From Promethearchaeia archaeon (GTDB lineage Archaea; Asgardarchaeota; Lokiarchaeia; Sigyniarchaeales; SOKP01): DNA of 32,000 bases. Below, in pieces: positions 720-26,961 of the stretch; positions within the stretch are counted from its first letter, which is position 1, and every line of letters begins with the position of its first letter. Position numbers and translations under genes: made by a program. Under the pieces are notes generated by a model. It saw only the letters and a list, made by a program, of their open reading frames with translations, did not search any database and was not told the DNA's origin. Location of the stretch: NCBI GenBank assembly GCA_046497275.1, contig JAWOFX010000080.1:45562-77561 (forward strand), given 5' to 3'.

Positions 720-1490
720 TTATCCCTCCATCACATTTAGATAAATTGGTGTAATTCCTACAATCTTATCCATAGCAATTTGACCTCGTTGCTTCAATAC
801 TAAAATATGATCCAAAATTTCACTTGGCTTTATTTCAAACTCAATCGCTAAATCTTTTACTGATTTTGGATCTTTCTTTAATGAAACGAGAATACGATGG
901 CGAACATATTCATCATAAATTGCTTTAATGAAGAGTTCCTTAAATTCTTCCTCCGGAATTTTTTCTCCATACACATTTTGTTGCTCTGTTAATGCTCTTT
1001 CTCTGCCTACTAATGCCCTCATTCTATAACTCGTAGATGCCATCTCTAATGATTTTATTTTATCAACCAATTCGATATTCTTCTTCCTATTTTGTAGAGG
1101 AGAGGGTCCTAAATCTTTGATGTGATTTGTAAAATTCGTAATTATTTCGGCAAATCGATTTCCCTCTGATGCTGAGACCCATTCTAATCTGATTCGATCT
1201 TCAAAGCCAACAAAACTTAAGAATTGTGTGATCATTTCATATTTTATTTCTGCTTCATAATTGCCTTCAAGATAATGACAATCTCCCGGATGGCATCCCA
1301 TCACAATAATACCATCTATTCCACTTAGAAATCCTTGAAAGATGAATTCGGGATCCACTCTTCCACTACACATTACTCGAATTACTCTCAAGTTCGGGGG
1401 ATATTGTATCCTACTCACTCCTGCTAAGTCAGCTCCCGCATATGAGCACCAATTACATAGAAATCCCAAAATTTTCGGTTCATAACTCAT
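720..1490 (-). CDS. mvhD: MvhD/FlpD [2Fe-2S] hydrogenase delta subunit with a C-terminal extension ending in a winged-HTH-like segment
   Basis: FLCNWCSYAGAD, RVMCSGRV and GCHPGDCHY motifs in the first ~130 aa; tail KSVKDLAIEFEIKPSEILDHILVLKQRGQI looks like an HTH. Confidence 0.92.
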   Translation of the reverse strand: MSYEPKILGFLCNWCSYAGADLAGVSRIQYPPNLRVIRVMCSGRVDPEFIFQGFLSGIDGIIVMGCHPGDCHYLEGNYEAEIKYEMITQFLSFVGFEDRIRLEWVSASEGNRFAEIITNFTNHIKDLGPSPLQNRKKNIELVDKIKSLEMASTSYRMRALVGRERALTEQQNVYGEKIPEEEFKELFIKAIYDEYVRHRILVSLKKDPKSVKDLAIEFEIKPSEILDHILVLKQRGQIAMDKIVGITPIYLNVMEG

Positions 1491-3172
1491 GCGATTTCTC
1501 TCCCTCCTAAGGCATATATTTCTGATAATATTTGCTCATTTGTGAAATGTTTGATTTGGATTGCTTTCTTTGTACAAGAGGCACCACAAAGACCACATCC
1601 TTTACATAATGCTTGAATAATTTCTATTTCGTCCTCTTCATTTTTTCTTATTGCTCCATAAGGGCATATTTCAATACAAATTTCGCATCCTTTACATAAT
1701 TCTTTATTCCATTCTGGAATATAAGCGGTACTTCCTTGGATCTCTAAAGTATCATGAGAAAGTATTGTACTTGCTCTTGAAGCCGCTGCTCTACCTTGAG
1801 TTAACGCCTGACCGATATCAGTTGGCCATTTAGCAGAACCGCATAAAAATACCCCATCTGTAGCAAAATCTATAGGTCTTAATTTTACATGTGCTTCTAA
1901 GAAAAAGTTATTCTCTTCCAAAGGAATTTTTAAAAGTTGAGCAAGATTTTTATTATTCTCATTTGCTATTAAAGGAGTAGATAAAACCAGTAAATCATAG
2001 GGAATACTCATATCTCTTCCTAAATACTCATTAAAAACGTGAACTTCTTCTTTTTTCACTATTGGCTCTTTTTCAGGTGAATATTTAATGAATAATATTC
2101 CTAATTCTCTTGTTTTTCTATAATATTGTTCATTTCTCGTACCTGGAGTATATATATCTCTAAATAAAATGCTTATATTTGCTTCTGGATTTTTTTCTTT
2201 AATAATTAAAGAATTTTTTAAAGCAGTCATACAACAGATACTTGAGCAATAATTTCTCTCTTCACAGCGAGCCCCAACACATTGTATCATTACTATGTTG
2301 TTCTTGTCAAAGGATTCTTCTTTTAATATTTTCTCTAATTCAAGTTGAGTGACTCTCACTTTCCCATCATAACCATATATATTTACAGGTTGAAAGGTTG
2401 ATGCGCCTGTAGCAACTATAATTGCTCCCACTTGTAATTCCTGGATTTTACTATTTTGTTCAATAATTACATTAAAATTTCCTAAATATCCATTGATTTC
2501 TGAAACCGTTGATGATGTTAAAATCGTTAAATTATTCGCATCTTCTATCTGATTTTTTAAACCTTCAAGGAATTTTGATGCTTTAATATTATCGGGATAA
2601 ATCGTATTTAATGAATTTAGCATGCCACCAATTCTCTCTTCTTTTTCTATAAGAAATGTTTCAAATCCTTGTTTACTTAAACTTAAAGCAGATGATATGC
2701 CTGAGACTCCCCCTCCAATTACAAGCGCTTTAGACTCAATATCAATTGAGATATCCTCTAAAGGTTCTAATTTTTCTGCTTTAGAGACTCCCATCTTAAT
2801 TAAATCTAATATTTTATTATAAGCTTCATTAGGATATTTTGCATGAACCCATGTACATTGATCTCGAATATTGACGAAATTAAAGAGATATTTATTTAAG
2901 CCTGCCTCTTGGACAGTTTCTCTAAATAAAGGTTCATGAGTTCTTGGAGTACAAGAGGCAACAACAACACGGTTTAAATTATGTTCCTCTATAGCTTTTT
3001 TTATAGAATTTAACCCATTTTCAGAGCACGTATAGAGGTTATCCTCACTATATGCAACTTTTGGAAATTCTTTGATCTCTTCAGCCAATTTTTTACAATC
3101 AACTAAGCCCCCGATGTTAGAACCGCAATGACATACAAAAACCCCTATTCTAATATCATCATTATTAGTAAT
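1487..3172 (-). CDS. hdrA: HdrA-like protein (C-terminal half of a split long HdrA); true start probably ATT at 3170-3172
   Basis: The track starts at TTG 3088, but the frame stays open for 28 codons upstream through the conserved RIGVFVCHCGSNIGG motif. ALVIGGG, CSSICC and C-terminal ferredoxin (CKGCEICIEICP, CKGCGLCGASC) motifs are present. Confidence 0.9.
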   Translation of the reverse strand: MTNNDDIRIGVFVCHCGSNIGGLVDCKKLAEEIKEFPKVAYSEDNLYTCSENGLNSIKKAIEEHNLNRVVVASCTPRTHEPLFRETVQEAGLNKYLFNFVNIRDQCTWVHAKYPNEAYNKILDLIKMGVSKAEKLEPLEDISIDIESKALVIGGGVSGISSALSLSKQGFETFLIEKEERIGGMLNSLNTIYPDNIKASKFLEGLKNQIEDANNLTILTSSTVSEINGYLGNFNVIIEQNSKIQELQVGAIIVATGASTFQPVNIYGYDGKVRVTQLELEKILKEESFDKNNIVMIQCVGARCEERNYCSSICCMTALKNSLIIKEKNPEANISILFRDIYTPGTRNEQYYRKTRELGILFIKYSPEKEPIVKKEEVHVFNEYLGRDMSIPYDLLVLSTPLIANENNKNLAQLLKIPLEENNFFLEAHVKLRPIDFATDGVFLCGSAKWPTDIGQALTQGRAAASRASTILSHDTLEIQGSTAYIPEWNKELCKGCEICIEICPYGAIRKNEEDEIEIIQALCKGCGLCGASCTKKAIQIKHFTNEQILSEIYALGGREIA

Positions 3173-4485
3173 TAAAATTCACCTCCTTTAATAATCTCTG
3201 CTGCGCTTGATGCAGCAGCACTCGCCTCGGCCACTGTTTGTGGGATATCCATAGGTTCATGAGCACATCCACATGTAAAAATGCCTTCTCTTGAAGTCTC
3301 TATTGGAAAATAAGGATCTGTCTTGATAAAATCAAAATCATCTAATTGAATACTAAGAACATTAGCTAATTCTTGTATTCCTTTTGGTGGAACTATACAA
3401 GTAGCTAAAACAACTAAATCAACCTTCAATTTTTGGATTTCTGAAGTATCAAAATTTTCATAAGTTATAATGGGATTCTCTTTCTTATCTATACTAATTT
3501 CAGGAATTTTACTTTTAATATAATTAATATTATATTCATTTTCCCCTCTTTCTATAAATTTAGTAAATCCTTTTCCCCCTGCTCTAATATCAATATAAAA
3601 AATATAAGATTCAATTTCATTATCGTGTTCATAGGCTATCATTGCTTCTTTTGAAGTATACATACAACAAATAGAAGAACAATAATCTTTGTTTCTTTTA
3701 TCTCTAGATCCAACACACTGAATATATGCTATCTTTTTTGGCTTCTTTCCATCTGAAAGCCTTTTAATATGCCCTCCTTGGGGTCCAGAAGCACTTAATA
3801 ATCTTTCGAATTCTAAGGCAGTAATAACATTTCTAAATTCTTTATAACCATAGTGGTTTAGTGGGATTGAATCTTCTATAACATCATAACCCACAGAAAC
3901 GATTATAGAGCCAATGTTATCCAATTTTAATATTTCTTCTTTTTGATCAAAATCTATTGCATCTTTATCACAATTCTTTTCGCATATTCGACACGCTTCT
4001 TTTGTGAACCATAAACAATGTTCTGAATCTATAGTCATTACAGCTGGAACACCTTGTAGATAATATAAATATATGGCTTTACGGTGTCTTAAACCTCTAT
4101 CAAATTCATCCTCTACGCGCATTGGACATTTTTCAGCACACTCACCACAATTAATACACGCATCTTCTTTTACATACCGTGGCTTCTTTAAAATTTCAAT
4201 AGAATAATTTCCCTTCTCTCCATTAATTTTTGTTATTTCTGAAAGCGTATGGAGAGTAATATTAGGATGTCGATAACATTCAGACAATTTTGGGGCTAAA
4301 ATGCAGATTGAACAATCATTTGTGGGAAAAGTTTTGTCTAATTGGGCCATTCTGCCACCAATACAGGGTTGCTTTTCTATTAAATGAACATGAATATTCA
4401 TATCTGCTAAATCTAAGGCAGATTGAATTCCTCCAATTCCTCCGCCAACAACAACTACACTTTTAGAATTTTTCAAGGATCTCAC
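3172..4485 (-). CDS. hdrA: HdrA-like protein (N-terminal half of a split long HdrA)
   Basis: VVVVGGGIGG FAD motif, MAQLDKTFPTNDCSICIL, CINCGECAEKCP, FERLLSASGP, CSSICCMY. Confidence 0.93.
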   Translation of the reverse strand: MRSLKNSKSVVVVGGGIGGIQSALDLADMNIHVHLIEKQPCIGGRMAQLDKTFPTNDCSICILAPKLSECYRHPNITLHTLSEITKINGEKGNYSIEILKKPRYVKEDACINCGECAEKCPMRVEDEFDRGLRHRKAIYLYYLQGVPAVMTIDSEHCLWFTKEACRICEKNCDKDAIDFDQKEEILKLDNIGSIIVSVGYDVIEDSIPLNHYGYKEFRNVITALEFERLLSASGPQGGHIKRLSDGKKPKKIAYIQCVGSRDKRNKDYCSSICCMYTSKEAMIAYEHDNEIESYIFYIDIRAGGKGFTKFIERGENEYNINYIKSKIPEISIDKKENPIITYENFDTSEIQKLKVDLVVLATCIVPPKGIQELANVLSIQLDDFDFIKTDPYFPIETSREGIFTCGCAHEPMDIPQTVAEASAAASSAAEIIKGGEF

Positions 4486-4525
4486 TTCTCTTTAATTATT
4501 TTATTACTTCTTATTGAAAGCCAAT

Positions 4526-5416
4526 TTATTTAAGAAAATTGAGTTCTTGCAGTAAAGCAGTAGGTTTAGCTCTATGATAATTGAACCCTAGTTCGTTTGG
4601 ATTTATCCCAAATGCCAAAGCAACCAATTCGGATAAATAAAAAATCGGAACATCATAATTAGTTTCATTTAATTTATTTAACTCCCTTTGATTAAAATCA
4701 AATTGTTGGTAACACGCGGGACATACTAACGCCACACAATTGGCTCCAGAATTAATGATAGATTCAAGTTTGTTCCCAATCATGAGAAGGGATAAATCTT
4801 TATCGGATTTATCAACAGGATTGCCACAACATTCTAATTTCAACTCATATTCTATAGTTTCAGCTCCAAGAGCTTGAATTATGCTGTCTATAGTAAACGG
4901 TTCAAAAGGATCATCCCAATCTATTATTTCTGATGGTCTTAAATAATGGCAACCATAATGCACAGCTACCTTAAACCCATCTAAAGGATTTACAAGATTT
5001 TTCTTAATCAATTCTAAATTTTCATATAAAACCTGACCAAAATGCTTTACACTTGTTAAACCATCATATTCTTTTCCGACTTTTTTTAATATTTTATTAG
5101 TCTTTGCCTTGACTTCTTCATCTTTCTTGATATGATAATTTACTCCCTTAAGCGTTTCGACACATCCAGAACAAAGCGAAATAATCCCACCGTTTCCATT
5201 ATTGCTTAAACTTAAGTTTCTAGCCCCCAATGCTAACCAGGTATTTTGATCAATCTGCTCTATCCCTGTTGGGTCCGGACAACAACTAAACCCATCAACA
5301 TCATTAAGTTTTATCCCCATCTTGTCAAAAATCTTTCGAGCAGAAGCCTCAAGGAAAGGAAGCCTGGCTGGGATTACGCATCCCAAAAATAAATCATACT
5401 CCATCTCATTTCTCAC
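4526..5416 (-). CDS. hdrB: Heterodisulfide reductase subunit B (CCG domains); start may be ATG 5404
   Basis: FLGCVIP, SCCPDPTG, CSGC, HYGCHY, CCGN, CPAC motifs. Confidence 0.93.
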   Translation of the reverse strand: MRNEMEYDLFLGCVIPARLPFLEASARKIFDKMGIKLNDVDGFSCCPDPTGIEQIDQNTWLALGARNLSLSNNGNGGIISLCSGCVETLKGVNYHIKKDEEVKAKTNKILKKVGKEYDGLTSVKHFGQVLYENLELIKKNLVNPLDGFKVAVHYGCHYLRPSEIIDWDDPFEPFTIDSIIQALGAETIEYELKLECCGNPVDKSDKDLSLLMIGNKLESIINSGANCVALVCPACYQQFDFNQRELNKLNETNYDVPIFYLSELVALAFGINPNELGFNYHRAKPTALLQELNFLK

Positions 5417-5903
5417 CTAATTTAATTTTATTTTCTATTCCCGTTTCTTTAAAAATTGGCTCTAATTCCTTCATCTCTGCTGTTTTAATCTCCGGGAGAT
5501 TCATCTTTTCTCGTCTAGATAAAATAGATTTTGAGAAGGGGATTGCAATACCTTCGTTAACAATAGCTTGGGCTTGTAATAAAAATGCTTCTGGCAATTT
5601 ACCTCTCTCAAAGCAACGGTTTTTAATCACGGAAAAGATTTCTGTTAATTCTACTTTTTGAGGACATAATTCTAAACATTTTTGACATGTGGAACATAAC
5701 CACACATTTGGGTTTTGCTCCTCAATTAACTCCTCTTCAAATCCAAGAAGTGCAAGCTCTATTATTTTCCTTGGATTATATTTTCCTTTAGTCATTAACG
5801 CTACAGGGCATCCGCTTGAACACGTAGAACATTGATAACAATAACTTAATGACGCATTATACTGCAAAATCTCATTTCTAAATTCAAAATTAATTAAACT
5901 CAA
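5406..5903 (-). CDS. hdrC: Heterodisulfide reductase subunit C
   Basis: CYQCSTCSSGCP and CSTCQKCLELCP; TTG start 6 nt after GGGTGA. Confidence 0.93.
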   Translation of the reverse strand: MSLINFEFRNEILQYNASLSYCYQCSTCSSGCPVALMTKGKYNPRKIIELALLGFEEELIEEQNPNVWLCSTCQKCLELCPQKVELTEIFSVIKNRCFERGKLPEAFLLQAQAIVNEGIAIPFSKSILSRREKMNLPEIKTAEMKELEPIFKETGIENKIKLGEK

Positions 5904-20427: not shown

Positions 20428-21762
20428 TTGGAACTGTCGATAATTAAAGATAAGACGTTTTATATTGAGACTTATGGATGTGCAGCAAATAAATTCGATT
20501 CATATATTATAATTGATCTTTTACAGAAGGCAGGTTATAAGCAAGCTAATTTTGAATCTGCAGAATATATTATAATCAATACTTGTGGCGTAAAAGAACA
20601 AACCGAAAATAAGATCAGAGCGCGGCTAAGAAAATTATCAGATTTGAAATATAATAATCCTAAAAAGAAACTCATCATTGCTGGATGTTTACCATTTATT
20701 TCTTCAAATTATATGAAAAAAATTAAAGAACTTATACCAAATTATTCCGCTATTATCGGATTAAATTCAATTTTTAAAATAGTAGATGTATTCGAAAAAC
20801 TGCAAAATGATGAGGAAAATCTAATTTTAATTACGAATCAAAAGCATGATAAAGCTATTTATATGGTAGATTATACTCCAAAGAAGATCACTGGTATCGT
20901 TCCTATTTCAGAAGGATGCATAGGGTCATGCACTTACTGCTGTGTAAAAAACGCACGTGGAAGATTAACATCCTACTCTCCTGATAATATCATAAAAAAT
21001 GTGAAACATCAATTAGAGCAAGGTATCAAGCAAATATATCTCACCTCACAAGATTGTAGCACCTATAAATTTAATGGAATTGAATTAAGTGAAATTATAA
21101 GAAGAATAAATAATCTTCACCATGAGTTTTTCCTAAGAGTAGGCATGCTTAATCCAAGTTTTATAATTGACAATTTAAATCAGATAAAAGAAATTCTTAA
21201 TTATCCAAAGACTTATCAATTTCTACATATTCCCATTCAGTCGGCGAGTACTAAAATACTTAAGAAAATGAATCGTCCCTATACCCTCTCGGATATTATT
21301 GGGAAAATAACTGAATTAAGAACAGAATTCCCCTATCTTACTCTTTCTACAGATATTATCTGTGGGTTTCCAGGGGAAACTGAATATGATTTTTATAAAA
21401 CCCTCAATTTTATCAAATGGCTCCAACCAGAGATCCTAAATATTTCTCAATTTACACCCCGTCCAGGAACGAAAGCAAAAAAGATGGAGCAATTAAAAAG
21501 TCAAATTATAAAGGAGAGATCAACCCGATTATCTAATATTTTTAGAAATAGTTTAGATTTTATTAATGAAAAATGGACAGGATGGAGAGGTAAAATGTTA
21601 ACACTCCATAAAGGGGGAGAAAAAAACCAGGTTTTTGGGAGAAATTTTGCTTATAAAAATGTGTTTGTTGGTAATTATTCAGGGAATTATGGGGAATTCA
21701 TTGAGGCGGAAGTGTATAAGGTTGATGGGTTTAATTTATACGCAAAAAAGATAGAAAAATAG
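20428..21762 (+). CDS. mtaB: tRNA t6A37 methylthiotransferase (archaeal MtaB/CDKAL1-like radical SAM)
   Basis: YIETYGCAAN, INTCGVK, IAGC, CIGSCTYC, HIPIQS, DIICGFPGET and a TRAM-like C-terminus. Confidence 0.88.
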   Translation: MELSIIKDKTFYIETYGCAANKFDSYIIIDLLQKAGYKQANFESAEYIIINTCGVKEQTENKIRARLRKLSDLKYNNPKKKLIIAGCLPFISSNYMKKIKELIPNYSAIIGLNSIFKIVDVFEKLQNDEENLILITNQKHDKAIYMVDYTPKKITGIVPISEGCIGSCTYCCVKNARGRLTSYSPDNIIKNVKHQLEQGIKQIYLTSQDCSTYKFNGIELSEIIRRINNLHHEFFLRVGMLNPSFIIDNLNQIKEILNYPKTYQFLHIPIQSASTKILKKMNRPYTLSDIIGKITELRTEFPYLTLSTDIICGFPGETEYDFYKTLNFIKWLQPEILNISQFTPRPGTKAKKMEQLKSQIIKERSTRLSNIFRNSLDFINEKWTGWRGKMLTLHKGGEKNQVFGRNFAYKNVFVGNYSGNYGEFIEAEVYKVDGFNLYAKKIEK

Positions 21763-21769
21763 AAAATTT

Positions 21770-21840
21770 GTTGGTTGTACCCGCGCAGGGCAGTCATATC
21801 CAATCTATAGTTTTTATTAGATATTTCATCCTAAACCAAC
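21770..21840 (-). promoter_or_regulatory. Candidate eukaryote-like SECIS element for vhuU
   Basis: Minus strand reads GTTGGTT-TAGG-ATGA-A-ATATCTAAT-AAAAACTATAG-ATTGGATAT-GAC-...-AACCAAC: AUGA/GA core, 9-bp upper helix with one G-U, A-rich apical loop, and a complementary lower helix. Folded by eye. Confidence 0.65.
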
Positions 21841-21978
21841 GTTTAGATTTCGTGAGTAAATCTCGTCTCCCTCTTCATTAACAAAAGTGATATGGGCGGC
21901 GCATGATAGTCAACAATCATAACAGCGAACTATCATTTCTAAGAGATTTACTAACCCTTCATCAATTTCTTCACTCAT
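21826..21978 (-). CDS. vhuU: Selenoprotein VhuU, the [NiFeSe] hydrogenase C-terminal peptide (50 aa; UGA codon 23 = Sec)
   Basis: Not in the track. MSEEIDEGLVNLLEMIVRCYDC(TGA 21910-21912)LSCAAHITFVNEEGDEIYSRNLNVGLG*. Matches the RxYDP-C/U-xxCxxH L2 motif, which the upstream large subunit lacks. Confidence 0.93.
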
Positions 21979-22044
21979 TTTTATTTACTAGGTTGTTTCA
22001 ATTGGAAATATATTTTAAATTTTAATAAAAATAATTTCTGTAGC

Positions 22045-22932
22045 TTATTTTAGATTATATTTTTCTAAGAGATCATTAGCTCGAGCTCGATGGTACTTCA
22101 TTCCAATATCATCTGGACTAATTCCAAAAGATAATGCTAATAATTCCGTAACATATAGAATTGGAATATTATATTCCTCGTCGAATAATTTCTTAAGATT
22201 TCTCTGATTGGTGTCCATTTGTTGGAAACAAGCAGGACAATTGATAACAAAACATTCGGCACCTGCCTTTAAAGCACTATCAAATTTATTTTTTAAGATT
22301 TGCATCGATGGTTCTTCTTCAGCATTTCCGACTGCATTGCCACAACAAAGCACTTCTTCCTCATAATCTACTGGAGTCGCGCCGGTAAGTTTTACAATCT
22401 CTCTTAATTTTACTGGTTCCATTGGATCATCAGTTTGCAGGATTTCTGAAGGTCTATTATAATGGCACCCTGTATGACATGCAACCTTAAGACCGGATAA
22501 ATCATTGACTACATTTTCTTTTATTTTATCGGGGTTAATATCATAGAGAACTTCCACAAAATGTTTTACATCTATAGTACCTTTGAATTCTTTATCAATT
22601 GTTTTTAAAATTTCATTAACTTTTTCCCTTACCTTTTCATCATGCTTTAATTCATGATTTACGCATTTAAGAGTTTGAAAACATCCATTGCATAATGAAA
22701 TAATGTTTTTCTCTTCATTCTCTCCGATAATTAGATTATTGGCACCCATCGCTAACCAGCTTGTATGATCAACTTGCTTAAAACCAGTAGGATCTGGGCA
22801 GCAACCAAAAGGGCCTTCAGATGTCTTTATTCCAAGAATATTAAACACTTTTCTAGCAGAAGCTTCTATAAATGGAATTCTATTTCCAATCACACATCCT
22901 TCGAATAATTTGTATTCCTCTACTTTTGCCAT
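22045..22932 (-). CDS. hdrB: Heterodisulfide reductase subunit B
   Basis: FEGCVIG, GCCPDPTG, CNGC, HTGCHY, CCGN, CPAC. Confidence 0.93.
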   Translation of the reverse strand: MAKVEEYKLFEGCVIGNRIPFIEASARKVFNILGIKTSEGPFGCCPDPTGFKQVDHTSWLAMGANNLIIGENEEKNIISLCNGCFQTLKCVNHELKHDEKVREKVNEILKTIDKEFKGTIDVKHFVEVLYDINPDKIKENVVNDLSGLKVACHTGCHYNRPSEILQTDDPMEPVKLREIVKLTGATPVDYEEEVLCCGNAVGNAEEEPSMQILKNKFDSALKAGAECFVINCPACFQQMDTNQRNLKKLFDEEYNIPILYVTELLALSFGISPDDIGMKYHRARANDLLEKYNLK

Positions 22933-22935
22933 TTC

Positions 22936-23454
22936 TTATTCCTCTTTATTTTGTTGTAAAATCACATTTAATTTAGATTTATTGAAAATTTTTTGAATCT
23001 CCTCAATATTAGGAGCTTCGATCTTGGGTAGTCCCAAATCATCTCTTCTTCTTTCTATAGCAGATTGCATAGGTATTGCTTTTCCATTTTCATAAATAGT
23101 AGTAGCTTGTTGAGTATAGTATTCAGGACCCTCCCCTCTTTTAACACTCATATTTTTTAATACTGTAAAAATTTCTGTTAATTCAATGTTTTGCGGACAT
23201 ACTTCATCACAAGTATCACATATAGTACAGCCCCAGAGATAAAATGAATCTTCTGAATCTAAAATACTTGGTTGAATGCCCAAAAAAGATTTTAAAATGA
23301 TATCTCTTGGGTCATATCTCCCGGGAGCGACTTTTGCGACGGGACAATTATCTGTGCAGCGATTGCACTGATAACAATACTTTAACGTATCATGAATATG
23401 AGCATCCATAATTAACTTTCTAAATTCATAATCAACACTTACCATAATTCTCAC
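22936..23454 (-). CDS. hdrC: Heterodisulfide reductase subunit C
   Basis: CYQCNRCTDNCP and CTICDTCDEVCP. Confidence 0.93.
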   Translation of the reverse strand: MRIMVSVDYEFRKLIMDAHIHDTLKYCYQCNRCTDNCPVAKVAPGRYDPRDIILKSFLGIQPSILDSEDSFYLWGCTICDTCDEVCPQNIELTEIFTVLKNMSVKRGEGPEYYTQQATTIYENGKAIPMQSAIERRRDDLGLPKIEAPNIEEIQKIFNKSKLNVILQQNKEE

Positions 23455-23493: not shown

Positions 23494-24798
23494 TTATTTA
23501 ATCCATGGATCTGGTAAATTTAATCCTTCTAATGCTTTATCTTCAAAGACTTGTTTGGCTGTATGCATCAGTGATTTCTCAATTCCTGCGATATTATGAT
23601 TCGTGGCAACTAACAGATTCAGTTTCTTGCACATGCCTTCAGCATCCGACCAGATATGATACAAGAGTACGCCTCGTGGAGCTTCTGTGACACCTACCCC
23701 ATTTCCTTCTCTTGGTTCCACATCTAAGGTTTTACAATCGGGATTCACGATGTCGGGATCTTCAAGGAGAATTTTAACATTTTCAATTGCTTCCACGGTT
23801 TCTATTAATCGCGCCCAATGATATGCAAATGTATGATGAGAAATTTGTCCAACTTTATCTCGAAATTGCTGTAAAGCATCTTGTGCTAATGGTGTTGCCA
23901 TCTTATCGGCGGCATTAATCATTGCCAAAGTATTTGCTCGATAAATTCCTTCCGGATATCCAGCGGGCTTATAATACATGTGTGTCGCGTAGGAATGTTC
24001 TGGAATGTGTTCGCCTAAGGCATCAAGATAATTCTGTACTTTATAGTCCGTTTTCTCTCCTTCTGGAGAAACAATGCGAATATCACCTTCGTAAATATCA
24101 TGAACACCCCCTTTAGTCATCCCTAAATAATATGTAGGAACGACACCGACATTAGCAACAACATCCCAATAATCTTCGACAACTTTTAGCCCAATCTCAA
24201 CAGTTTTCTTGGTAAATTCAATTTGTTCATCGACTTGTTTTAAGAATCTGTCTCGCGCATCTTCATCCATTGGTTTTTTCATCCCACCAACGATTGCGGA
24301 AATTGGATGGACTGACTTCCCTCCAATTTCTTGACAGAGCTTTTGTCCGAAATCCATCATCTTTAATGCCATTTTGCCGACATCGGGCATTTTATTGATC
24401 ACGTGAACAACATTACGTTTTGCGGGATCGGCAAACGGTCCTAACAAGAAATCTGGTGCTGCCAATGCGTAGAAATGTAAGATATGTGAAGAATACTGCT
24501 TTGCATTCATTATTAATTGTCGCAATTTATAGGCAGGTTCCGGAATCTCTACTCCCCATGCATCCTCAACTGCTTTTGTTGGAGTAATATGATGGGGAAT
24601 TGGACAAATCCCGCATATTCTTGGTGTGATTCGCGGTACATGTTCGCAATATCGCCCTTCCACAAATTTTTCAAAAAATCGAGTGGATGTGATATTGAAT
24701 TGAACATCCTTAACCTTTCCACCATCATCAATTACTATATGTAAGTCGCCATGGCCTTCTAATCGAGTGACAGGCTCAACCTTAATTTCTTTAACCAT
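23494..24798 (-). CDS. vhuA: Group 3c-type hydrogenase large subunit lacking the C-terminal Ni-binding segment (VhuA)
   Basis: EPVTRLEGHG, RICGICP (L1), EAPRG; ends LPDPWIK at a true TAA with no DPCxxC. Confidence 0.93.
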   Translation of the reverse strand: MVKEIKVEPVTRLEGHGDLHIVIDDGGKVKDVQFNITSTRFFEKFVEGRYCEHVPRITPRICGICPIPHHITPTKAVEDAWGVEIPEPAYKLRQLIMNAKQYSSHILHFYALAAPDFLLGPFADPAKRNVVHVINKMPDVGKMALKMMDFGQKLCQEIGGKSVHPISAIVGGMKKPMDEDARDRFLKQVDEQIEFTKKTVEIGLKVVEDYWDVVANVGVVPTYYLGMTKGGVHDIYEGDIRIVSPEGEKTDYKVQNYLDALGEHIPEHSYATHMYYKPAGYPEGIYRANTLAMINAADKMATPLAQDALQQFRDKVGQISHHTFAYHWARLIETVEAIENVKILLEDPDIVNPDCKTLDVEPREGNGVGVTEAPRGVLLYHIWSDAEGMCKKLNLLVATNHNIAGIEKSLMHTAKQVFEDKALEGLNLPDPWIK

Positions 24799-26515: not shown

Positions 26516-26961
26516 TTACTCAGGTTTTTTCAATTTAAATCTTCCTATAATTGTTAAAATAACACCTAAAAATCCAAATCCTCCATTCAAGGCTAAAAGT
26601 CCAATCATCCACGTTAGTAATTCAGAAGATAATGTTCCTGCATAGATTCCTGCAATAAAATATACTATTAAGCCTATAAGACCCAAACCTGCCCCCAAAG
26701 AAATAATAAATTTTCCAATACCATATTGCCCCAAAGCTACAATAATAACTCCGATGATGACAGATGCTCCACCACCTAAGGCAATATAATTAAAAATTCT
26801 CAAAATTAAATTCAATATAGGAGCCAATTCAGGAACCTCAGAAGTTATTATAGCAAAAATAGTAGCAAAAAACCAACGTCTCCGATTGTTGATCCTATTA
26901 ACATTAGAACTCCGCCGATTGCACATAAAACCATCCATTTTTTATTTTCCAATTTAGCCAT
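26516..26961 (-). pseudogene. Membrane protein with a 1-nt frameshift in a T6 tract (26867-26872)
   Basis: ATG 26961 gives MAKLENKKWMVLCAIGGVLMLIGSTIGDVG. Adding one T joins it to FFATIFAII...RFKLKKPE (148 aa). The track's N-terminus (MDGFMCNRRSS...) is out-of-frame junk. Confidence 0.75.

Follow-up and report, generated by a model that had tools for sequence, protein, structure and literature searches.

A vhuU gene with a predicted selenocysteine codon at the end of a split [NiFeSe] hydrogenase operon in a Lokiarchaeial genome

The 32,000-nucleotide stretch of Promethearchaeia DNA analyzed here (the window) carries the genes of a hydrogenase that, without an annotated vhuU, looks defective, with two of its four metal ligands missing. 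Downstream of the large-subunit gene lies a short reading frame interrupted by TGA, which standard gene callers miss. The question raised by this locus is whether the frame is a remnant of a lost gene, or a working gene whose TGA is read as selenocysteine (Sec) and whose product completes the enzyme. The answer has practical weight, as metabolic reconstructions of Asgard H2 use would be wrong with vhuU left out. (Promethearchaeota and Promethearchaeia are the current names for the Asgard/Loki lineage.) We conclude that the frame (Table 1) is very probably the functional vhuU of a Lokiarchaeial (Promethearchaeota) group 3c F420-non-reducing [NiFeSe] hydrogenase.

Table 1. Coordinates of the features discussed. 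Positions refer to the window unless another locus is named; G, C and L numbers denote genomes, contigs and loci of the comparison set.
Feature	Position	Strand	Description or basis
vhuU coding sequence	21826..21978	-	50 sense codons plus TGA stop (21826-21828); ATG at 21978
In-frame TGA, codon 23 of vhuU, read as Sec	21910..21912	-	Aligned with the first Cys (terminal nickel ligand) of DPCxxCxxH
hdrB-like gene, two CCG domains	22045..22932	-	Pfam CCG; TIGR03288 E=2e-83, under cut-off
hdrC-like gene, 4Fe-4S dicluster protein	22936..23454	-	TIGR03290 E=2e-27, under cut-off
vhuA, [NiFe(Se)] hydrogenase large subunit, 434 aa	23494..24798	-	Without the C-terminal metal-binding motif
vhuG, hydrogenase small subunit, 492 aa	24801..26279	-	VhuG NF045875 E=2e-71
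lokiSECIS	21770..21840	-	Fold; covariation; match to the form in PMC4989117
lokiSECIS AUGA core	21826-21829	-	Includes the vhuU stop codon UGA
lokiSECIS helix II, 9 bp	21816-21824 with 21796-21804	-	Fold
lokiSECIS apical loop AAAAACUAUAG, 11 nt	21805-21815	-	Starts AAAAA, ends AG
lokiSECIS 3' GA	21794-21795	-	Fold
lokiSECIS helix I	21834-21840 with 21770-21776	-	GUUGGUU (codons Val47-Gly48-Leu49) pairs with AACCAAC
GC hairpin in lokiSECIS	21779-21791	-	G-CCC, 5-nt loop, GGG-U
Oligo-T tracts (T4, T5, T6)	21744..21766	-	Directly after the SECIS; overlap the 3' end of a convergent radical-SAM gene
Within-genome VhuA pair	23494-24798 / L045:8199-9497 (G000:C44)		
Within-genome VhuA pair	L046/L047		
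Within-genome VhuA pair	L064/L077		
Within-genome VhuA pair	L098/L108		
VhuD-type gene with two TGA	G000:C124:11535-11903		
VhuD-type gene with two TGA	G000:C171:7218-7586		
VhuD-type gene with two TGA	G000:C109:18407-18766		
VhuD-type gene with two TGA	G000:C24:4010-4375		

Under the standard code the vhuU frame stops after 22 codons. With the TGA read as U it yields MSEEIDEGLVNLLEMIVRCYDC-U-LSCAAH-ITFVNEEGDEIYSRNLNVGLG, in which a tail of 21 residues follows His29. Homology to the C-termini of group 3c large subunits identifies this product as a C-terminal fragment of a [NiFeSe] hydrogenase large subunit. The peptide was aligned to residues 423-449 of MvhA-type chains, and its residues 5-30 to the 27-aa VhuU chain 9sfi_M, which has X at the Sec site. 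Alignment to solved structures likewise placed the TGA codon on the C of DPCLSCATH in 9sw2_F and 5odc_F. An earlier, preliminary description of this DNA had proposed a 50-codon frame with TGA at the nickel-ligand position of the L2 motif, followed by a typical extension beyond the histidine; the sequence and the alignments to MvhA and 9sfi_M confirm the former, and the 21-residue tail agrees with the latter.

The best NCBIfam family for the peptide was VhuU (NF041786; E=7e-14, model positions 2-39 of 45). The score of 51.3 bits, obtained with U scored as C, falls under the curated equivalog cut-off of 70 for this methanogen-based model, so that automatic naming of vhuU would probably fail, although that cut-off governs naming and does not mark a biological property. 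Pfam gave no family for the 51-aa peptide. The Sec codon sits in the motif R-C-[YF]-D-C-U-L-S-C-A-A-H (window 21898-21924, minus strand), where Cys replaces the usual Pro directly before Sec. The D-C-U type of motif is kept in about 89 of 92 homologues, counting the single Cys form (D-C-C), and the exceptions read D-P-U or D-F-U. A Cys adjoining the Sec nickel ligand could form a selenenylsulfide.

The large subunit encoded upstream has the complementary structure. VhuA contains the N-terminal RICGICPIPH and ends in NLPDPWIK, with no C-terminal DPCxxCxxH, as the preliminary description had stated for its L2 motif, and the point of the split is that of 9sfi. VhuA covered positions 3-417 of the 418 in NF041785 (E=2e-146), and its best matches among solved structures were 9sfi_g and 5odc_F. 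In the split chain 9sfi_g (418 aa), positions 3-417 are matched by VhuA residues 4-418, an end-to-end alignment of 437 bits. Against the unsplit 473-aa MvhA of 5odc_F, VhuA residues 4-414 align to 3-414 and VhuU residues 7-38 to 426-455, so that the two tile one chain. This joint tiling of MvhA, together with the match to the split 9sfi/9t1s pair, indicates that the VhuU peptide would supply the two C-terminal metal ligands missing from VhuA.

Alignment of the small subunit, VhuG, to MvhG (5odc_E) falls into one block at 28-204 and another at 364-477. The insert of about 160 residues between them (about 205-363) holds a second copy of the Cys-rich Fe-S module, with 45% identity over 51 residues (E=9e-13). 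VhuG of the more common operon type described below (type B) is also long, at about 434 aa.

At the 3' end of vhuU, and overlapping its last codons, lies a putative recoding signal of the lokiSECIS form (Table 1). In Lokiarchaeota this element was defined as AUGA, a 9-bp stem, an 11-nt loop starting with adenines and ending in G, and then GA or AA, with the stop codon of VhuU.1 inside the AUGA (PMC4989117); a lower stem of the form UGG_CCA has been mentioned for this gene family (PMC11227280). In the window element, AUGA and the stem are separated by one A more than in most homologues, and a subset of the homologues shares this extra A. The predicted pairing was evaluated on 56-58 homologous elements, in which helix II is paired in 93-94% of cells versus 19-51% with slid partners. 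Compensatory changes were found at seven of the nine helix II pairs and at two helix I pairs. Helix I varies at two positions, the wobble bases of the Val and Gly codons, and each covaries with its partner (UA 44, AU 7, GU 4, UG 2 and CG 1 at one position; CG 31, UA 22 and UG 3 at the other).

The lokiSECIS is not peculiar to vhuU: inspection by eye showed the same succession of AUGA, 9-bp stem, 11-nt loop and GA behind two VhuD genes of the genome, each of which has two in-frame TGA codons. A covariance model of 56 vhuU SECIS elements, searched against the genome itself, found only the two vhuU copies; the model is sequence-specific, and 150 of 11478 first-look candidates were scored. A scan of the window with Rfam at gathering thresholds gave no match, which is uninformative as Rfam appears to have no lokiSECIS family. 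Between the 3' GA and the 3' strand of helix I the element also contains a short, conserved GC hairpin, giving a three-helix structure, and a similar hairpin occurs after a VhuD SECIS in another locus (L155). In those parts of PMC4989117 and PMC11227280 reached by a term search, no mention of this hairpin was found.

Between vhuA and vhuU lie the hdrC-like and hdrB-like genes. Because the operon contains neither hdrA nor vhuD, the composition of the complex proposed below is a predicted one; 12 FlpD/MvhD genes are found elsewhere in the genome. Directly upstream of vhuG is a very hydrophobic ORF of 140 aa (window 26516-26938, minus strand) with no family match, which has a 46% identical homologue at the same position in L080. 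A second Hdr-type cluster lies at 720-5903 of the window, on the minus strand. Besides hdrC (5406-5903) and hdrB (4526-5416), it encodes two flavoproteins resembling HdrA (3172-4485 and 1487-3088) and, at 720-1490, a protein in which an MvhD/FlpD domain is joined to a weak HTH match; no hydrogenase subunit is encoded within it. Extension of the MvhD-like ORF through a TGA to position 1598 was judged spurious, as its FlpD domain already starts at residue 7.

Gene order was compared across relatives found via VhuA, most of them named Promethearchaeota or Promethearchaeia and a few bearing other Asgard phylum names or evidently misbinned labels. The order of the window, vhuG-vhuA-hdrC-hdrB-vhuU (type A), is the minority form, present in full or as a contig-truncated part at 15 loci of several genera, the window included. 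The common form, vhuG-vhuA-vhuU-hdrC-hdrB (type B), was seen at 69 loci, and a third, vhuG-hdrC-hdrB-vhuA-vhuU (type C), at four loci of a sister family. The position of hdrC and hdrB between vhuA and vhuU, singled out as unusual when the locus was initially described, is therefore real and conserved. No mention of vhuU placed after hdrCB was found in the main text of PMC4989117 or PMC11227280.

In the window, vhuA and vhuU are 1.5 kb apart, and vhuU is separated from hdrB by an AT-rich gap of 66 nt (21979-22044). The genome also has a type B operon (contig C44, L045). A 228-nt block comprising vhuU, the SECIS and the hairpin (window 21764-21987) is 84.6% identical to the paralogous L045 block, which suggests that vhuU and its SECIS moved as a module. 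T tracts act as archaeal terminators, and the oligo-T tracts directly after the SECIS likely mark the end of the transcript. A run of at least five T within 45 nt after the SECIS was present at all 13 type A loci scored versus none of 67 type B loci. This distribution is in line with a terminal vhuU cistron and a true 3'-UTR SECIS in type A, as opposed to an intercistronic SECIS in type B.

Decoding of UGA as Sec requires a dedicated machinery, and its components were all located in the genome, a metagenome-assembled draft of 3.85 Mb in 188 contigs (98.9% complete, 4.4% contamination). Infernal with RF01852 detected tRNA-Sec at 49.4 bits, above the Rfam gathering score; its anticodon is UCA, and its T-loop has an insert of 30 nt. 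The insert matches the 31-nt T-loop intron described for Loki, where EFSec also lies nearby on the opposite strand (PMC4989117). ARAGORN reported no tRNA in the window and also missed tRNA-Sec on L001 and L002, likely owing to the 30-nt insert. SepSecS (486 bits) lies on the same contig as one tRNA-Sec, and an EFSec-like GTPase, whose SelB score is under the equivalog cut-off, is encoded on the opposite strand 3.3 kb from the second tRNA-Sec hit. A PSTK-like gene scored 173 bits over the whole model, under the equivalog cut-off, and the SelD gene has an in-frame TGA of its own. The components that the preliminary description had named as the place to look, namely tRNA-Sec, SepSecS, PSTK, EFSec and SelD, are thus represented, PSTK and EFSec by genes of their type. 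A gene for a HycI-type maturation endopeptidase is also present.

The two tRNA-Sec hits, with identical scores, are at the ends of two contigs (G000:C33:11-129, L001; G000:C165:63-181, L002), one of which carries SepSecS and the other the EFSec-like gene. The assembly probably breaks at the tRNA-Sec gene, and tRNA-Sec, SepSecS and EFSec may form one locus. That the machinery and the operon belong to one organism rests on binning, but the same combination recurs across relatives. Four of the 12 FlpD/MvhD genes contain two in-frame TGA codons and are VhuD-type selenoproteins (Table 1); the selenoproteome of this genome is thus sizeable, and gene callers would fragment it.

The presence of two operon types in one genome allowed their subunits to be compared. 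In the four genomes that have both, VhuA is 93.5-97.2% identical between types, and VhuG and HdrB are 48-52% and 58-62% identical, respectively; between genomes, VhuA within one operon type is 82-90% identical. Window and L045 VhuA are 96.1% identical as proteins and 86.5% at the nucleotide level, and the two VhuU copies are 84% identical. In a quick VhuA tree the type A and type B copies of the same genome pair up (SH-aLRT 93-98), and well-supported branches force at least five changes of operon type. Since VhuA copies group by genome and VhuG and HdrB are old paralogues, the data suggest that the catalytic subunit alone has evolved in concert or undergone gene conversion. Any conversion within the window pair would not be recent, given a nucleotide identity of 86.5%. 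One locus, L080:96-5413 (JAHQWS010000002.1), has a hybrid operon, in which vhuU and type B HdrC (51%) and HdrB (60%) come after a homologue of the window-type membrane ORF, a VhuG of type A (75.5% identity to the window VhuG) and VhuA. Such a hybrid could have arisen by recombination inside vhuA, or else in metagenome assembly, as a chimera joined at the near-identical vhuA copies.

Several explanations of the frame compete with a functional vhuU. If the TGA were a true stop, the frame would be the degenerating relic of what was once vhuU or the C-terminus of vhuA, in keeping with the 22 codons readable under the standard code and the lack of a Pfam family. The behavior of homologues argues otherwise. 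Of 41 related genomes covered by a read-through search, 37 contain a vhuU homologue, far more than chance would allow, and almost every homologue has a single in-frame TGA. Together with 80 further loci found via VhuA, this gave 91 different homologues of 150 nt; 90 of them, drawn from several families of the order, have TGA as codon 23, and the remaining one (L060) has TGT (Cys). This is a classic Sec/Cys pair, and the alignment of UGA with Cys that the preliminary description anticipated at this codon. Loss of conservation beyond the TGA, which that description took as the sign of a pseudogene, was absent: the protein is kept past this point (LSCAAHITVV...GLG). With the window copy as reference, post-TGA differences at codon positions 1, 2 and 3 numbered 427, 85 and 1285, and codon changes comprised 953 synonymous versus 516 non-synonymous. 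This third-position bias and excess of synonymous change indicate that the frame beyond the TGA is under purifying selection. With a covarying SECIS behind the gene and a complete Sec machinery in the genome as well, decay is so improbable that we give it next to no weight. An alternative that accepts vhuU as real has its UGA decoded by other than Sec-specific means, for instance near-cognate read-through with Cys or Trp, or has the gene translated only when selenium is available, the hydrogenase being otherwise inactive. Homologue L060 implies that a Cys form is viable. Yet the genome contains, besides the SECIS, a dedicated tRNA-Sec with a UCA anticodon. Searched with the vhuU query, it yielded neither a vhuU encoding Cys nor an unsplit copy of vhcA type, and both vhuU copies have TGA. 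Elsewhere TGA serves as a stop, as at the end of vhuU itself and of the gene at 1487-3088, and a general reassignment of the codon was rejected on the same ground. Decoding by such means is very unlikely, and we infer that selenium is incorporated at codon 23 of a functional vhuU.

A further explanation concerns not what vhuU is but which VhuA it serves. The two VhuA and two VhuU proteins of the genome might be interchangeable, with the window vhuU a second dose rather than a partner dedicated to the adjacent VhuA. The near-identity of window and L045 VhuA, and the grouping of VhuA by genome instead of by operon type, speak for this. Retention of the vhuU-SECIS block at the end of type A operons across several genera, on the other hand, suggests selection for a copy in cis, and we regard interchangeability as rather unlikely; it would in any case be compatible with a functional vhuU and does not replace that explanation. 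As a tentative account, possible though short of probable, the two hydrogenase-Hdr operons would be old paralogues, as the 48-62% identity of their small subunits and HdrBC suggests, with repeated recombination or gene conversion keeping the VhuA copies of a genome 93-97% identical. The L080 hybrid agrees with an exchange of this kind. The 228-nt vhuU-SECIS module would, in one lineage, have been relocated past hdrCB, so that it came to lie at the end of the transcript just ahead of the oligo-T terminators. If so, an intercistronic SECIS would have become a true 3'-UTR SECIS of the eukaryotic kind, and selenium-dependent translation of the last cistron would be the final step that completes the active site.

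Taking vhuU as functional, the following mechanism can be proposed. The large subunit would be made in two parts, VhuA (434 aa) bringing the N-terminal RxCGxC nickel and iron ligands, and a mature VhuU of about 29 residues bringing the C-terminal ligand pair, Sec23 and Cys26, within D-C-U-L-S-C-A-A-H. UGA codon 23 would be recoded to Sec by Sec-tRNA(Sec) and the archaeal EFSec under direction of a eukaryote-like SECIS that starts inside the last vhuU codons, and the stop UGA within the AUGA core would lie too close to the SECIS to be recoded itself. Once the metal is in place, the HycI-type endopeptidase would probably cut off the 21 residues past His29. The VhuAGU module would then be expected to oxidize H2, the electrons passing through the Fe-S clusters of VhuG to the operon's own HdrBC-like proteins and to HdrA-VhuD pairs from other loci, of which four are Sec forms. 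Such a complex could perform flavin-based electron bifurcation onto ferredoxin and an unknown disulfide. What would set this operon apart is the vhuU-SECIS module after hdrCB, at the predicted 3' end of the transcript. Collectively, the tiling of VhuA and VhuU on MvhA, TGA conservation, the SECIS and the Sec machinery support the Sec-dependent split Vhu hydrogenase that was originally suggested for this organism.

How much of this is new? The preliminary description called the vhuU gene hidden, which is apt insofar as gene callers miss it and the NCBI model would not name it at its cut-off. As a claim of novelty it was overrated, since vhuU and its SECIS have been known in Lokiarchaeota from 2016 (PMC4989117). 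That study (Mariotti et al. 2016) reported Sec-containing VhuU, VhuD and HdrA, the lokiSECIS, the stop/AUGA overlap and an intron-bearing tRNA-Sec. VhuU-type selenoproteins, counted as 'FrhA/MvhA/VhuU', were later recorded in 68.3% of Sec-using Asgard genomes (PMC11227280, 2024), and they also occur in Atabeyarchaeia and Freyarchaeia (PMC11291895). The window vhuU is accordingly a correct rediscovery, useful for annotation, unsurprising to a specialist and involving no new principle; with the gene and its recoding signal already published for Lokiarchaeota, only its operon position is unusual. The new points are modest, namely a second operon type with vhuU and the SECIS at its end, the apparent concerted evolution of VhuA, and the GC hairpin in the SECIS internal loop. 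Together they could inform how the position of the SECIS, intercistronic or in the 3' UTR, evolved on the way to eukaryotes.

Among known systems, VhuU.1 of Lokiarchaeota (PMC4989117) is one of the closest to this locus. In both, a gene of about 50 codons, one of them for Sec, is followed by a SECIS whose AUGA contains the UGA stop and whose 9-bp stem carries an A-rich loop of 11 nt with G as its last base; a T-loop intron in tRNA-Sec, with EFSec near it on the opposite strand, is likewise common to both, and the UGG_CCA lower stem is shared with the family as described in PMC11227280. The window differs in that vhuU follows hdrC-hdrB rather than coming directly after vhuA. Its SECIS departs from the published element in the extra A after AUGA, in having GA and not AA after the stem, and in the conserved GC hairpin. 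With methanococcal VhuA/VhuU (9sfi, 9t1s; NF041785, NF041786) the locus shares the split point, with a VhuA of about 418 aa in that system, and a small VhuU with U-x-x-C-x-x-H. In contrast to that system, the host here is not a methanogen, the SECIS is eukaryote-like and not of the GAA_A type, the motif reads D-C-U instead of D-P-U, VhuG is about 200 residues longer, and hdrCB is embedded in the operon. The unsplit MvhA of the MvhAGD-HdrABC complex of Methanothermococcus thermolithotrophicus (5ODC) is likewise a group 3c enzyme linked to Hdr, and VhuA and VhuU together cover its residues 3-414 and 426-455. MvhA, however, is one polypeptide with Cys, whereas the large subunit of the window is encoded by two genes and is predicted to carry Sec.
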